A stretch of 63,901 nucleotides of DNA, the filler included, from Sphacelaria rigidula (lineage: Eukaryota), in the NCBI GenBank assembly GCA_964200075.2. It is 9 parts of 9 records of this genome, joined end to end, with 100 filler letters (N's around TTAATTAATTAA, not from the genome) between each part and the next. Parts side by side here need not be neighbours in the genome. Positions count along the whole stretch, not along the records: positions 56,891 to 63,901 come from CAXNAA020016965.1; 8 more parts are not named here. One strand, 5' to 3'. A model generated the notes under the pieces. It did no database searches, was not told the origin of the DNA, and saw only the letters and a program-made list of their open reading frames with translations. The position numbers and the translations under genes are program-made. This document shows positions 19,741 through 63,901 of this stretch, piece by piece. Numbering within the stretch: the first letter of the stretch is position 1; each line of letters opens with the position of its first letter.

Positions 19741-20118
19741 GTAAGCACGCGGGCACCGCATGTCGCAGAGGTGATGTCCACTGGTTGTGTCTGTGAATAA
19801 AATCCAAGACACACACACTCGGAGGAGAATATCGGTCCGTTTCAAGAGTTATTTTTGTTTGGCCACGGATAGGACATGTCCCAACCGATTGGATCGACAT
19901 AACGCCCCCCTCCCCCCTCCCCCCGAACAAAATGGTGTTCCCAACTTGTTTCTTTCATCGACGTATTCATCCAGTAACGCCATGATAGCCATGCCTCAAA
20001 ATCCGCTCCGCTCAAGTACGCGTTGAGCCGAAAATTTATTTCCAATGACATGCCAGGTTTTCCCCCCACTCCCTACTGAACGCAATCTCTCCTTCAGAGT
20101 GAAAAAAACACGACTCAC

Positions 20119-21233
20119 GGTTCGCGCCTGCTGCTGCTATCCCGTGCACCGTACACGCCGCCCACACCAGTAGCACCACGGCTCCCATCGCCACTCTGCC
20201 CAGAAGTGCTACCGTCGTCGTCGACAGAGCGACGGTTGAGGCTGCGGTCACCGGGCTCCAGACCGCTGTTGCTGTCGCTGACCGGCTCACCGTCGAAGCT
20301 GGAATCCATGGAGTCGCCACCGATCGTATCGTCGAACAGATGGCAGTCATCATCGCTGCTGACCGGAAAACCGCCGTCACCGCCGCTGCCTACAACACCA
20401 GTAGCATCACTAGCACTGACGACAGTTCGACGCTCCGCACTAGCGTCATCTCCAGCACCAACGACGCTGTGTGCAGGCCGACGCCCAGCGCTACTTCTAT
20501 TGTCAACACCCACGGCCTTATCGCTGCTGATGCCACCACGACCGGGGGGTGCGCTATTTCCAACATCGCCGTCGCGAGTACGCGGAGTACCAGAACCGCG
20601 GGAGTCGGCACCACCGACGGCATTGTCGTTGCCGAAGGCGGTAGGCTTGGGGATGTCGGTAGGCTTGAGAGCGTCGGCAGGCTTGCGAACGTCTTTAGGC
20701 CTGGATATGTCGGCAGGCTTGCGGATATCGGTAGGCTTGGGAGCGTCGGCAGGCTTGGGAGCGTCGGCAGGCTTGGGAGCGTCCGCAGGCTTGGGGGTGT
20801 CAGCATGCCGGGGGGTGTTGGCAGGCTTGGGGATGTCGGCCGGCCGAGTGTTGTTGGCAGGCTTGGGAGCGTTGGCAGGCTTGGGGATGTCGGCAGGCCG
20901 AGTGGTGTTGGCAGGCTTGGAGATATTGGCAGGCCTGGGAATGTCGGCAGGCTTGGGAGCGTTGACAGGCTTGTTGATGTCGGCAGGCCGGGGGGTGCTG
21001 GCAGGCTTGGGGATGTCGGCAGGCCTGGGGTTGTCGGCAGGCTTGGGAGCGTTGGCAGGCTTGGGGGTGTCGGCAGGCCAGGGGGTGCTGGCAGGCTTGT
21101 TGATGTCGGCAGGCCGGGGGGTGCCGGCAGGCTTGTGGATGTCGGCAGGCCTGGGGTTGTCGGCAGGCTTGGGAGCGTTGGCAGGCTTGGGGATGTCGGC
21201 AGGCCGGGGGGTGCTGGCAGGCTTGTTGATGTC
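20119..21233 (-). CDS. Large exon (5' end lost at the contig edge): 33 x hexapeptide [D/N/S]-x-P-[K/R]-P-A, then a Gly/Ser/Asp-rich disordered region
   Basis: Frame is open from 21233 to the TGA at 20117-20115 (372 codons), with GC-rich third positions. A perfect GTGAGT donor overlaps the TGA, so the exon is probably spliced onward. Confidence 0.7.
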
Positions 21234-21235
21234 GG
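20640..21235. repeat. 18-bp coding minisatellite, about 33 units
   Basis: GGCAGGCTTGGGGATGTC-type units in phase, without indels. Confidence 0.97.
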
Positions 21236-21766
21236 NNNNNNNNNNNNNNNNNNNNNNNNNNNNNNNNNNNNNNNNNNNNTTAATTAATTAANNNNNNNNN
21301 NNNNNNNNNNNNNNNNNNNNNNNNNNNNNNNNNNNGTCACGAGTCGACTCATCATACTAAAACCAAGTAATTTCCAGACGAATCATTATTTGTCCGACCG
21401 TTGAACTGGTCCATTGTGATGAGCATGACAGTTGTGATGGATGTTCCACTTTGCTTGTTAGGGTGCGTTGATTTGTGACCGGGCTGTGGCAGTGGTGGTG
21501 GGGTGTCGGTAGTTCATTTTCGTCCTGCGGTGAAGGCTGAAGAGGCGCATCGGATTTCAAAGTGGCGTGCCCCAAACAGGACTCTGGCGCTGAGAAGTTG
21601 ACTCTTTTCACAGTGCAACATATACCGTCACCGGCTTTTCTCCCTTCCACTCGGACTCTTGCACGCAAAAAAAAAAAATCAGGAGATGTCTGATAATAAT
21701 TATCTGATCGACCACGTGTGGGTGGTCTGAAAAACTAAGCGTGCTCATGAAAACACTGATGTAAAT

Positions 21767-58600: not shown

Positions 58601-58969
58601 AGGATTATCCCCGGCTATTCCCCATGAAAGGGAAATCTGAGCCGGATGCTCACATGAACCGGTCATGTGATCAAATTTGCTGCCATGTTCTCCTGTTTCC
58701 CTGTTCCACCCCTGCTCGTCTTCCCTCGATGATGTCCACGCTCATATCACGAGGAAAAAATGATGCTGTCAGTTTACCCCATCGTATCTTCTCATCGTTG
58801 ATGAGTTAAGAACGTTCCCAACCCCATTTCGCCAGGAACATTTAAGCAGGAGTACGGTACTGCGTTAATAATATGAAGTACGCTTAACCGGTGTTATGAT
58901 ACCCATGGCATATACGTGCAGGTTATCGTTCCAAGTACCGTATAGCCAACGCGAAAAACCGGCGAAATA

Positions 58970-61117
58970 ATGAGTGGAAATCCTCTGAACCCGCAAGCTC
59001 AACCGTTTTACCCAGCTGGATCAGCTCAACAGTTTCAACAGCCTCCAGTGCAAGCCGCACCGCAGCAGCAACCTGTCGTCCCTGTTCAACAACAACAGGC
59101 TGTCGCACCCCCTCCGCAACAGTTTGTTGGACCCGTTCAACAACAGCAAGCTGCCGCACCTCCTCAGCAACGGTCTGTTGGACCTGTACAGCAACAGCAG
59201 GCTGCCGTACCCCCTCAGCAACAGGTTGTTGGACCTCTGCCGCAGCAGCCAGCTCTACAACAACAACAACAAGGACACCTTGGCCCGATGCACCCGCATG
59301 TCCCGTTGTCCGTTCCTCCGCCTCCTCAGCCGGCAATGTCAGTCCCTGCGCCCCAGTGGGCCCCTCAAGCGCCGGCCGCCGGGAATTTCGCGTATTCCCA
59401 GCTGCCACCCCCGCCACCATTGCCCCCGCAGCGCCGCTCTAGGTATGTGGTTGCACCGGACCCAATCAGTCTGTATAGCAACCCGTTTTATGTATCCCTA
59501 AATCTTTCGGGTACAACACCAGCCGCCCAGTCGAGATTGGACGGGCTGACGCCGTATGGAACCACATACCCCCGTGTTCCCGCACCACCTGCACAGTCAT
59601 TTAACCGCGACTTGTCAGCGGTACTAGGACACATTGAAGCGGTATCTCGTCAGGCAAACACCTTAGCCAAGAATCTAGGCTCCAAGGACGCTGACGCCGT
59701 GGTGTACAAGGGACGATCGGTAGAACACCCCGCAAAGTTGACGTACCGCAACTCCGCAGTCTTGTTCCTAAATCATTTTCATACCACACTAGCGGGGTAC
59801 GAAGGGGGGGGTTGGGGGGTACCCACTGACGCACATATGACAAGCAAGCCGTTATAACCCCAAGTGGACCAATACACGGATAGACGTAGAGTCCTGATAA
59901 TGCGGGTGATGTTGCCAACTTCCGCGACATACACAGAGATGGCCAGCTGGCGGGAGTCGCAGGTTACGGTACTCGGGGTAGCAGGAAATACCATGCGCGC
60001 CCCATTTGGTGATGTAACCGTCCTAGAGTGGCTCAGGAAACTAGTTATCGAGGAAGCAAGAATGGGCACACGCCATGCGGAAGCTGCACTGGCAAACGTA
60101 AAGCTGATCAAGAACGAGAGTTACGTAGCGGCAGCCCACCGTCTAGTTTTGTTGACCATGGCGGCCACAGTCTCTCCAGCTTCACCACACCTCGCGGAAG
60201 AGGAATACCTAGCCTTGCGGTTGTGTGGGATCTTCCATAAGTTGGTAATCCCCAACACGGCAGCACAGCTAGTATCGCATACTCTGCTACAGATACCCAA
60301 CAAGGCCTTGGAGGACGCAGTCCGTTCGACACCATTTAACCACGGAGATCCGTGCAGCCCCGTTATGAAGAGTCGAGGACGCATTCCGTATCGCATATAT
60401 AGTGACTTCGTATCGGCCATCCAACGTCACTGTGAATGTGCCCAGACGACAGCGGACACGATAAATAGCGCTACCGCAGCTCTAACCCGCCCCACTCACA
60501 AACCTATATATGCGGGGTTAGTGGAGACCAAGAAGCGACTACTGAGGAAAGCGGAGGAGGAAGCCCTTGAAGAATACTTCAACTCCGTCGCCGCCTTCAG
60601 TAACCAGAAGGCGTCAATGCCACGCGGCGGCACGCCTTTCGGGGCATCCCCGTCGACTCGCGAAACGCGGAAGCGTCCGCGAGAAGAGTCAGGAAAGCAG
60701 AACAAGCGTGTCAGGTTCGACACGCGAGGAGGTGCACCGGCGACAGGTTTCATTCCCGCCTAAGAGGCGCCCAAAGGGGAGCGTGACGTCGCCATACGTC
60801 TTCTGGGCGTGTGCTTCAACCATGCGTATGGGCGGGACTGCAGCAGCAACGACACAGGGAGCTGCAAGTTCTCCCATGACGAAGACCGCATCCCCTTCGG
60901 CTATTACAAGCAGCCAGAGCAGTCCCAAGCAAAGCCCAGGACAAGGAGAGATGAACTGATGAGCCTACAACTGGGGGACTTGTTCAGGCTTATCGACAAT
61001 CAGTAAGGGGATCAGGGATTCGACCACACCCTGGACCAGCCAGGAAGTGACGCGGAGGAGGACGTCGAGACGGTGGGTGCGCTGAGCAACCGTTTCGACG
61101 CCACAGGCGAGGAATGA
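58970..61117 (+). pseudogene. gag: Gag-like ORF of a Ty3/Gypsy element; one frame with three internal TAA stops (59855, 60761, 61004), ending at TGA 61115-61117
   Basis: ORFs 58970, 59864 and 60809 share a frame. N-terminal Q/P repeats, a basic NLS-like patch and a C-x8-C-x7-C-x3-H finger; lies directly upstream of the protease. Confidence 0.8.
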
Positions 61118-63901
61118 AGGTGCGCCCTGGGGCCGCAGTCCCGGGGGGACAGCGTAGAGGCGGATAGAGTAGCAGCAGTGAAAAGGGTTCATGCACAGCA
61201 ATTGTGGGTGCAAGCTAGAGTTTGGCACCACAGTAAAAGTAGCCTCGCTTTACCAGTAACGTTGTTACTGGACACCTGGGCGGGGGGGGAAAGCTATGCA
61301 TCAAAGCAGTGGTGAAAGTCTTTGGTATTTGGGGGAACATATCGGGGAGACTACAGCGGCAAGGAGCAGGATTCCCGAGAGCAGCAAATCCTAGTGACAG
61401 CAGGACGCCGCCGATGAAGGCTTTGGGGTCAGCGGTAATTCCGGTTCGGTTCCATCCAAAGGATAGAATAAGGAAGGTATGGGTTAGGGTTATCGATGGA
61501 TTGCCGTACAGGTTCATATTGGGGCAAGTTTCTTTAGAAGGAACGAGAGCACACTGTCTTTTGAGGGTCAGTCGGGGTTCCGACCATCACCGGAGGCCCC
61601 GTGGGTGAGATTCGTGTCTAATGGCTCACCAAAACTCGGAGCCGTTAACGCCGATCATCTCACTGGACAGGGAGACTCGGCAGGGTGCGGTCTCTTCTGT
61701 GCTGTCAAGCCGAGAGCGCTCAGCGACGACCCGACGGGGGTATTGTCGGGAGGGAGCGATCTGGCAGCATGGGATGAGGTATGGAAGAGCCTTGGCGCGG
61801 CGTGGGAGGACGACGCTACACTTCAGTGGCCTCTAAGGCTGACGGAGGACGCGCGATTGGAAGGCTTCGTTAGCCAGCTAGTCCCAGGCTACGTGCGAGG
61901 TCCTCATCCGCAGGAACGCCAACTCGTGTTGATCGAACCTTGAAAGTTGTTCGATTTAGATGAGGAAGCTGAGATGGGGGTAGCTAGGGGAGTGCAGTGG
62001 TGGGATCCACAGCTACCGTTGGTATGTAAGGTGGTCAACACGGCCAAGAATGCTCGCCTGGTGAAGAAGGGTATTATAGTGGCGAAAGTTGTGGCCGTGA
62101 GTGTCCGAGATTGCGAGCGGTTGCAGAATCTGTACGTGTCCGACTCGGGCACCACGCTCTATTCGAAGCTGGAGGCTCGAGGGACTGCGCCAGCCCCTCC
62201 CCATCCGCCGCCGGAACCCCAGGAAGGGAGGAAAAGGACACAACTGAAGCCATAGGAGTAGATCTCACAGAAGCGAACATGGGTCAGTTGGGTCCGACGC
62301 AGAAGACACTGCTGTTGTCCATCTTAGGAGACTTCAACGAAACAGGACTTTTTGCGGTGGACCCCAAGAAGGTGAAAGCGGCGCGTGGGGAACCGTTACG
62401 TCTACGACTGAAAGATCCCTGGTGCAAGCCATTCGCTGCCGGTACCAGGCGGTACTCACCAGAACAAGCAACAGCTATACAAGACGAAGATCAGAAATTC
62501 GCGGAGCGGGGGGTCATTGAGCCGTCGACGTCCGCATGTGCAGCCGCTTGCGTCACGGTGCGGAAGAAGGGCGGTAGTTTACGGTTGTGTCAGGATTATC
62601 ATGGACTAAACAAACCCCTAGAGTCGTACAGCGGTGGTTTGGGGGATATGCAGACGATGTACAGTGGCCTGGCGGGATCCAAGTACTCTACGAGTGTGGA
62701 CTTAGCGAGCGGATTTTCCCAGTTGGACGTGGCGAAGGAGGACCGACACCTCACCGCCGTTCGTGACGCGCGCGGGCACTTATGGCAATATCAGCGTTGT
62801 GGATTCGGACTCAAGGTATTACCCGCGACATTTCACCGAACAGTATCCGAAGCGTTGTTGCCAGCGCAGGGTGTCAAGACTTGGTTGGATGATATCTTGT
62901 GGCCTAGCGCGACTTTCGCCGGCCACATGACGGGGTTGAGGGTTGTGCTCTATTGCCTACTGAAGGCAGGCCTCACTGTGAATTTCTAGAAATCACAGTG
63001 GTGCACCCAGCAACAGGACTTCGTAGGGATGACGATCGACGTGTCGGAAATACGACCTTCTCAGTCTAAGATCGAGGCGATCGCCCAGCTGAGGGAGCCG
63101 CAGAGGGTAGAAGAGCTAAGGTCATTCTTAGGTATGACCGGATATCTGCGGAGGTACATGAAAGGGTACAGCAATACGGCGGCACCACTTACAGACTTGC
63201 TGAGGGACCCACGATTCGCCTCCAAGCGAGCCCGGGGGATGGAGATCCCATGGGGGGACCAACAGCAACAAGCATACCTCGACTTCAAGAGCCGATCTTA
63301 GCATACCGGGATTGGAATGAACAATTCGTGGTACACTCAGACGCTTCAGAGTTCGCAGCAGGGGCCGCCCTGGCCCAAGAGGCAGATGAGAGGGAATGGA
63401 TCATCGACTACGCCAGCCACGGATGGTCTCGGGCGGATGATGAAAGATCAGCATCAGAGAGGGAAGCAGTCGCTGTTCTGTGGTCCGTGGAGCGATTCAG
63501 ATCATATCTATGGGGGCGAGAGTTTACCCTAGTCACGGATTGCAGTGCGTTGACATGGTTGTTTCGTAGCCAAAACTTGTCGCCTAAGTTCCACCGGTGG
63601 GCGCTGAGATTGATGGAGTATGATATGGTCCTCAAGTGGCGAGCTGGACGCGAACACCAGTTGCCAGACGCTCTGTCTAGGCTGCAAGGGAGCGAGCCCA
63701 GGGGAAGTGATATTGACGTGTCATTCCCTGACGATGATTCCGAAGCGGTACCAGGCGGAGGAGGAGGACCACAAGGACCCAAACCAGATGGGGTGTTGCT
63801 GAAGGAACTGGAGGCTGAGTACCCGAAAGAATCCGCAGACCTGATGGCATTGGCGTTGGAGGAAGTCAGCGCGTGGTATCCACCGGAAACGGGGGAAGGA
63901 G
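61118..63901 (+). pseudogene. pol: Ty3/Gypsy pol: protease, spacer, reverse transcriptase, RNase H (integrase would lie beyond the contig end); has stops and frameshifts
   Basis: LLDT(W)AG at 61271 and DGLPYRFILG (protease); VIEPSTS, LRLCQDY, VDLASGF, FGLK..PATF, WLDD (RT); VHSDAS, EREAVA, LVTDCSAL, RWALRL, PDALSRL (RNase H). PR-RT-RH order. Confidence 0.95.

Follow-up and report, generated by a model that had tools for sequence, protein, structure and literature searches.

A 63,901-nucleotide stretch of DNA from Sphacelaria rigidula (GenBank assembly GCA_964200075.2), made of parts of nine records joined end to end and hereafter called the window, carries near its end a dead copy of a Ty3/Gypsy-type long terminal repeat (LTR) retrotransposon whose Gag protein opens with a PAM2 motif, the peptide through which host proteins dock onto poly(A)-binding protein (PABP), at its MLLE domain. 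Cellular PABP partners with such a motif include Paip2, eRF3, Ataxin-2, Tob and PAN3, and a variant, PAM2w, occurs in LARP4/4B. The Gag motif is a close match to the consensus, is rare by chance, is retained among the copies of the family, and recurs in a second clade of related Gag proteins. We think it probable that this is a working PAM2 that binds PABP, and we put at about even the chance that it tethers Gag to PABP on the polyadenylated RNA of the element.

On the plus strand, the fifteen codons at 58970-59014, ATG AGT GGA AAT CCT CTG AAC CCG CAA GCT CAA CCG TTT TAC CCA, encode MSGNPLNPQAQPFYP, of which residues 6 to 15, LNPQAQPFYP, form the PAM2 core. One study gives the PAM2 consensus as LNxxAxEFxP (PMC7356810). 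Another describes position 7 as invariantly Ala and position 10 as invariantly Phe, the main binding determinant, with position 5 commonly Pro, position 12 usually Pro, and position 9 preferably Glu (PMC2854688). Gag Leu6 and Asn7 correspond to Leu3 and Asn4 of the motif, Pro8 and Pro15 to Pro5 and Pro12, Ala10 to the invariant Ala7, and Phe13 to Phe10, so that L3, N4, P5, A7, F10, and P12 are all matched; at position 9 there is Pro instead of the preferred Glu. A prediction made from the sequence alone had claimed that Gag opens with a PAM2 motif, and on this point it stands. It had also named a misplaced start codon as a way to be wrong, and the ATG at 58970 is the first in its frame: the nearest in-frame stop before it is a TAG at 58943, so that the stop-to-stop frame begins at 58946. 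PAM2 (PF07145) was the sole Pfam family to match the first open reading frame (ORF; 14.6 bits, E 0.027), and the first 30 residues of Gag taken by themselves scored 18.1 bits (E 0.0021). A sequence search of the PDB with the same 30 residues returned no match at E 10. When the window is translated in six frames, LN..A..F.P is met a single time, whereas block shuffles average 0.01 occurrences, with a match in 1 of 100 shuffles. Given its extreme N-terminal place and the Gln-, Pro-, and Ala-rich composition of what follows, we infer that the motif is accessible and lies in a disordered arm. Two other kinds of Gag signal were considered here and dropped: N-myristoylation, as the protein begins MSG and not MG, and PPxY or YPxL late domains, none of which was seen in the sequence at the motif site.

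Copies of the family retain the motif. Contigs of four public sequencing runs were aligned on 58700-61200 at 80% likeness, and three of the runs contributed 342, 354, and 378 contigs with summed word depths of hundreds to thousands, which marks the family as high-copy. Within the 45 bases of the motif only two variants are listed, at 58987 (CTG to CTA, Leu6) and 59008 (TTT to TTC, Phe13). Neither alters the amino acid, and in every run each is the letter of the majority; for 59008, the variant accounts for a depth of 7509.8 out of 7509.8 in run X1 and 4223.5 out of 4223.5 in run X5. These statements concern the 40 best-supported of 528 differences, in contigs that drop rare variants. The arm behind the motif varies in length among copies, with joints that skip 178, 105, or 82 bases or return 153 bases. 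Motif conservation against the variable arm had been proposed as a check, and it came out in favor: the listed Leu and Phe variants are silent while the arm changes length. In runs X1, X5, and X6, loose ends at 58957 reveal a diverged subfamily that reads ATG AGC GGA AAC CCC TTG. It keeps the ATG, and all four changes in the next five codons are synonymous, so that MSGNPL is retained, while 3 of the 12 bases immediately 5' of the ATG differ. One degenerate variant without the ATG is also present (run X3, agreement 0.77). As a separate observation, about half of the depth in X1 and X3 at 59090 reads an alternative letter that would make a stop in the gag frame; the position lies within CAA/CAG repeats, and misplaced alignments may explain the variant.

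More distant relatives were sought in a full HMMER search with Gag residues 140-678 (X at stops) against 1.84 billion representatives, at E up to 0.001. It returned 73 homologues, of which 27 reach an E of 1e-10 and 5 reach 1e-30. One of them is from a brown alga, which, with the "algae metagenome" label of one sequencing run, points to an algal host. Distant homologues share about 30% identity in the core and have Gln/Pro-rich N-terminal arms that are otherwise unalignable. The pattern L.P.A.P[FY].P occurs in 5 of 74 proteins, the window's own included, against a mean of 0.007 and a maximum of 1 in 300 whole-protein shuffles. Besides the window, the carriers are P0007 (LSPFAPPYVP), P0009 (LSPSAIPYVP), P0012 (LSPYAAPYVP), and P0022 (LRPFAPPFPP), and in all five the motif lies upstream of the core, at residue 6 in the window and at residues 156, 27, 93, and 15, respectively, in the others. 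We repeated the count on arms only, using the 22 proteins in which 30 or more residues precede the core and leaving out P0015 (an arm fragment), P0075 (in the same cluster as P0022), and P0076: 5 of the 22 arms have the motif, versus 0.0055 expected from 2000 composition-matched arm shuffles.

Of the 74 proteins, 32 went into a maximum-likelihood tree; the remaining 42 were short pieces or did not cover the core. The window's clade (with P0002, support 100/100) adjoins a pair of clades, one of which holds all four other motif carriers (support 87/89). The sister of that clade (100/99) has seven Gln/Pro-rich arms of 66 to 532 residues, about 1,300 residues in all, without the motif, which argues that composition alone does not make it. 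As judged from these sequences, the motif is kept, or was gained twice, in two deep lineages. Other searches added little: a profile search with the second clade contributed only P0077 and P0078; neither Gag 140-678 nor the first ORF gave a match in word-indexed protein searches, Gln-rich words having probably swamped them; and neither a metagenome scan with the first ORF nor a viral-contig scan found a relative. As for other shared features of the arms, LYSNPFY in the window (59471-59491; NPLY in the close relatives P0005 and P0015) may correspond to GPY[DE]NP in the second-clade arms of P0007, P0009, and P0012, as both lie between the PAM2-like motif and the core. If they do correspond, two shared motifs in the same order would favor common descent over convergence. 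PSAP in P0012 and PTAP in P0077 were set aside as four-letter matches in Pro/Ala-rich arms.

The protein that carries the motif is the Gag of a dead Ty3/Gypsy-type LTR element copy, in agreement with the original prediction, and the assignment is based on its capsid-like core and on the genes downstream of it. From 47 aligned sequences, AlphaFold2 modeled the core with a mean pLDDT of 79.2 and a pTM of 0.70. VIA-align compared the model with 48,161 chains, and capsid domains of retroviruses or retrotransposons make up 15 of the 50 listed rows, the best at Z 7.3, below the caution line of Z 8. Among them are the MOAP1 CA-like C-terminal domain (CTD; Z 7.3, root mean square deviation [rmsd] 3.5, 97 residues aligned), the PNMA2 capsid (Z 6.7, rmsd 6.8, 136 aligned), murine leukemia virus (MLV) CA-CTD (Z 6.4, rmsd 3.1, 83 aligned), the Copia capsid (Z 6.1, rmsd 9.8, 175 aligned), and the MLV CA hexamer (Z 5.7, rmsd 5.9, 197 aligned). 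Because each Z is under the caution line, the capsid-fold call rests on the enrichment of capsid rows. Foldseek found no match to the model in the PDB at E 0.001, and this Gag matched none of the Pfam Gag families, including Retrotrans_gag, up to E 10. Downstream of gag, a protease-like LLLDT.AGG stretch follows the TGA in the same frame as gag, and then, in broken frames, come RVT_1 (62561-62983, 32.7 bits) and RT_RNaseH (63310-63621, 97.4 bits). The resulting order of protease (PR), reverse transcriptase (RT), and RNase H is that of Ty3/Gypsy elements; integrase and the 3' LTR lie outside the window.

In its zinc finger this Gag departs from its group. Ty3/Gypsy elements usually have a CCHC knuckle, whereas here a CCCH finger stands in place of the nucleocapsid knuckle, and the same finger (C-x7-9-C-x4-8-C-x3-H) occurs in 27 of 76 family proteins. 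Homologous Gag ORFs end 26 to 77 residues past the finger, in an acidic tail. Over Gag residues 1-225, the arm contains 22% Pro, 19% Gln, and 12% Ala, and it includes a 51-base (17-residue) tandem repeat in 3.1 copies at 59081-59236. The gag of this copy is broken by three in-frame stops, at 59855 (59855-59857, within the core), 60761, and 61004. Other copies have a sense codon at each of these positions, and the stops are therefore private to this copy. The model aligns with the capsid domains of MLV CA, PNMA2, MOAP1, PEG10, Arc, and Copia, and the core, as in such elements, lies upstream of PR-RT-RNase H; unlike Ty3/Gypsy and domesticated Gag capsids, this protein has no Retrotrans_gag match, has a CCCH finger, and has a 200-residue Gln/Pro arm tipped by PAM2.

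Several smaller features of this Gag are recorded here in their own right. Between the core and the finger, the strongly conserved linker motif AAF.N..AS.PG..GTPF is matched as a regular expression by 16 of 76 proteins, across clades (P0007 at 635-652 and P0009 at 506-523 among its sites), and on inspection the window's version, AAFSNQKASMPRGGTPF, agrees with it; the motif may serve in processing or be a further docking site. The gag TGA and the in-frame protease-like stretch behind it lie within 61115-61300. With both in one frame, pol would need stop-codon readthrough and not a frameshift, and a G-rich run at 61278-61288 may conceal an insertion or deletion in this copy. Two candidates for a second PABP-binding motif were rejected. 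APATGFIP (60734-60757) had been proposed as a weaker PAM2, a claim that is not supported, since it belongs to a different conserved element, of LP..AP type, before the CCCH finger, and A..F.P is common by chance (30 occurrences in the window versus 14.7 in shuffles). The PAM2w-like MSVPAPQWAP (59336-59365) has a Trp that is not kept in the close relative P0015.

Binding to PABP was modeled with a stand-in MLLE domain, which was fetched from metagenome eukaryote contigs with a degenerate pattern for the domain signature and confirmed as Pfam MLLE (115.6 bits). For Gag residues 1-40 with this domain, ESMFold2 gave 0.48 (runs 0.47, 0.48, and 0.48), which it grades as "weak support"; the best of three controls reached 0.02. 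At least 90% of contacts are common to the runs, and the partner has a pLDDT of at least 56. The mark for a pass is reached by 51 of 78 solved complexes and by 2 of 108 mismatched pairs; the range at or below 0.60 holds only 5 of the 78 solved complexes and all 4 passing mismatches (of 180). The prediction of an MLLE complex, which had been suggested as a check, hence passed weakly against its controls, but with a domain that is not the host's. The pass may also come from likeness to PAM2-MLLE complexes that have already been solved.

Makorin-1 (MKRN1), HELZ, and Unkempt are host proteins that pair CCCH fingers with PAM2. Like this Gag, they combine a CCCH RNA-binding finger and a PABP anchor in one protein, placed near poly(A) tails; unlike it, they are host regulators, and the likeness is one of domain makeup, with no homology claimed. 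The cellular PAM2 partners at large share with Gag a 12-residue LNxxAxEFxP-type motif, which in them lies in a disordered region, often near the N terminus and beside Gln-rich or low-complexity sequence. The differences are that the carrier here is a retroelement capsid protein and not a host translation or decay factor, that Pro replaces Glu at position 9, that the second clade has Ser4 and mostly Tyr10, that the Pfam scores are under the cut-off, and that the Gag case is known from sequence. The nearest designed parallel is the NTVE system, in which HIV-1 Gag carrying an sPAM2 peptide binds the MLLE domain of endogenous PABPC1, and the RNA that it exports shows higher 3' coverage, as with a Gag-PABP fusion (PMC13121718). 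There a Gag with a PAM2-type peptide loads polyadenylated RNA, with a 3' bias, by design, which is the mechanism proposed here, but the system is man-made and uses a retroviral Gag in human cells, whereas the natural case is read from sequence. LINE-1 also depends on PABPC1: both the assembly of its ribonucleoprotein (RNP) and its mobility require the protein (Dai et al., cited in PMC3753637), and it encodes its own PABPC-binding element, aimed at RRM1, as described in a preprint (bioRxiv 10.1101/2025.10.09.680815). LINE-1 is, however, a non-LTR element without Gag, and its element is said to target RRM1 of PABPC1 and not MLLE and is not a PAM2. The engineered HIV-1 Gag-sPAM2 and the PABPC1 dependence of LINE-1 make an RNA tether plausible.

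In the mechanism that we favor, PAM2 would sit at the tip of a long, length-variable, disordered Gln/Pro-rich arm, ahead of the capsid-like core and the CCCH finger, and would most likely dock into the MLLE domain of host cytoplasmic PABP. The motif emerges from the ribosome ahead of the rest of Gag. It could therefore catch PABP on the tail of the mRNA that is being translated, and the tether may act in cis. Gag would in this way be tied to polyadenylated element RNA and would seed an RNP for particle assembly, with the CCCH finger and the multimerizing core adding RNA contact and avidity and the variable arm serving as a flexible spacer or a condensate-prone region. A bolder version, which we regard as improbable, is that PAM2 on nascent Gag gives an LTR retrotransposon a protein-based cis-preference, each RNA being marked for packaging by its own Gag. 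PABP would then also be held beside the ribosome at the gag TGA, and one 10-residue motif, kept or gained in at least two deep algal Gag lineages, would link the selection of genomes to protection from decay and to the Gag:Gag-Pol ratio.

A number of findings weigh against a working PAM2 tether. The Pfam search that had been proposed as a check named PAM2 and no other family, but even the best score, 18.1 bits, is below the curated gathering cut-off of 20 bits, as is the lower one for the whole ORF. The second clade has Ser4 and mostly Tyr10 (in three of the four carriers), where the literature calls Phe invariant; its motif is part of a longer block, PYVPSIQGPY[DE]NP, possibly of other purpose; and in Pfam PAM2 matches the P0007 peptide at 14.1 bits and gives no match to those of P0009, P0012, and P0022. 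The two carrier clades have eight arms, of which five bear the motif; P0052, P0067, and P0077 (arms of 41 to 65 residues) do not, nor do any of the 14 arms of the other clades, seven of which belong to the outer clade; the absence from so many arms marks the motif as dispensable for this Gag superfamily. The close relative P0015 begins inside Gln-rich repeats and is uninformative. Rarer nonsynonymous variants of the motif are possible beyond the 40 best-supported of the 528 differences, the ESMFold2 pass is weak and was obtained with a stand-in domain, and the copy in the window is dead, with three gag stops and a broken pol, no intact full-length family member being among the sequences analyzed.

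Some of these points suggest other explanations. The N-terminal peptide might be conserved for a role that does not involve PABP, such as docking of another host factor or an assembly, processing, or trafficking signal, its PAM2 likeness being partly coincidence. The block LSP.A.PYVPSIQGPY[DE]NP of the second clade, which is longer than a PAM2 and differs at the key Phe, would fit such a role, as would Pfam scores that all fall below threshold. Yet the window motif has every specified PAM2 position bar the preferred Glu9, no other Pfam family matched, the site lacks the late-domain and N-myristoylation signals looked for, and the stand-in MLLE fold scored 0.48 against 0.02 for controls, so we hold a non-PABP role to be unlikely. 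That a Pro/Ala-rich, low-complexity N terminus happens to spell a functionless PAM2 is already disfavored and seems to us very unlikely. The arm is rich in Pro, Gln, and Ala, the Pfam match is below threshold, and many relatives are without the motif; but only 0.01 matches per window and 0.0055 per 22 composition-matched arms are expected by chance, against 5 seen in the latter, the changes among the best 40 of the 528 differences in family copies are synonymous only within the motif, and the motif is absent from some 1,300 residues of similar sister-clade arms.

PABP binding might instead serve mainly for translational control of the element RNA and not for RNA capture; competition with eRF3 to tune readthrough at the gag TGA was among the uses raised by the original prediction. 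Occupancy of MLLE would displace eRF3, PAIP2-like repressors, or deadenylase adaptors, or alternatively PABP would be held next to the ribosome stopping at the gag TGA; the outcome would be altered termination and Gag:Gag-Pol ratio, or an RNA shielded from nonsense-mediated decay or deadenylation. The in-frame protease-like stretch after the TGA speaks for this, as do the homologous Gags, which also stop shortly past the finger: it is a family trait that gag closes with a stop ahead of some 4 kb of pol, and this stop must be bypassed. eRF3, Tob, PAN3, and Paip2 share the MLLE site (PMC2854688). Against it, clades without the motif have the same gag-stop layout, which therefore needs no motif, and yeast eRF3 is without PAM2, as stated in the abstract of PMC4274632. 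We consider translational control as the main function to be unlikely. Tethering of Gag to PABP on polyadenylated element RNA is the reading that we prefer.

In full-text literature that omits most subscription journals and supplements, judged from titles, abstract openings, and passages, we found no description of PAM2 in a retrotransposon or retroviral Gag, and an Ataxin-2 family survey that covers algae mentions neither transposons nor Gag. These searches agree with the earlier statement that no such description was known for Ty3/Gypsy Gag. What is new is the carrier of a docking motif already known for host factors, and with it a new route to the known PABP dependency of retroelements. Except in a few model elements, little is understood of how an LTR retrotransposon chooses its own polyadenylated RNA among the mRNAs of the cell, or of how an RNA that has a gag stop ahead of a multi-kilobase "UTR" (untranslated region) is kept stable and translated. 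A natural Gag with a PABP-docking motif would, if true, offer a simple, testable answer to both questions, would extend PAM2 carriers from host regulators to a selfish element, and would be a natural counterpart of the independently engineered combination of Gag with a PAM2 peptide for loading poly(A) RNA. The motif suggests, as far as sequence can, that the tails of mRNAs are where the element anchors its coat protein.

Features of the gag region and downstream pol of the Ty3/Gypsy-type copy, in window coordinates
Feature	Position	Strand	Basis or remark
Leader end	58946..58969	+	Last 24 bases, from TAG (58943-58945) to ATG
Gag residues 1-15, MSGNPLNPQAQPFYP, with PAM2 core at 58985-59014	58970..59014	+	Translation, Pfam, pattern count
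Gln/Pro/Ala-rich low-complexity arm	59015..59611	+	Composition, tandem repeat
Helical Gag core, capsid-like fold	59612..60595	+	AlphaFold2 model, VIA-align, homologues
Conserved linker motif AAFSNQKASMPRGGTPF	60590..60640	+	Regular expression in homologues; window version by eye
APATGFIP inside LP..AP-type element before finger	60734..60772	+	In-frame stop 60761-60763 within
CCCH zinc finger, C-x8-C-x7-C-x3-H	60812..60877	+	Weak Pfam zf-CCCH_DUS3L match, 15.1 bits
Third in-frame stop in gag, private to this copy	61004..61006	+	Copy comparison
TGA ending gag after acidic tail	61115..61117	+	Translation
Degenerate pol with frame breaks; window ends inside	61118..63901	+	Pfam RVT_1, RT_RNaseH

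Elsewhere in the window, an 18-base unit is repeated in a long array at 20550-21287 (at least 26 copies, shifted in register). Both strands are open across the array (20080-21291), and Pfam gave no match for these frames. An open frame at 46189-46761 matches Methyltransf_16 (lysine methyltransferase) at 32.2 bits and is probably an exon of a host gene.

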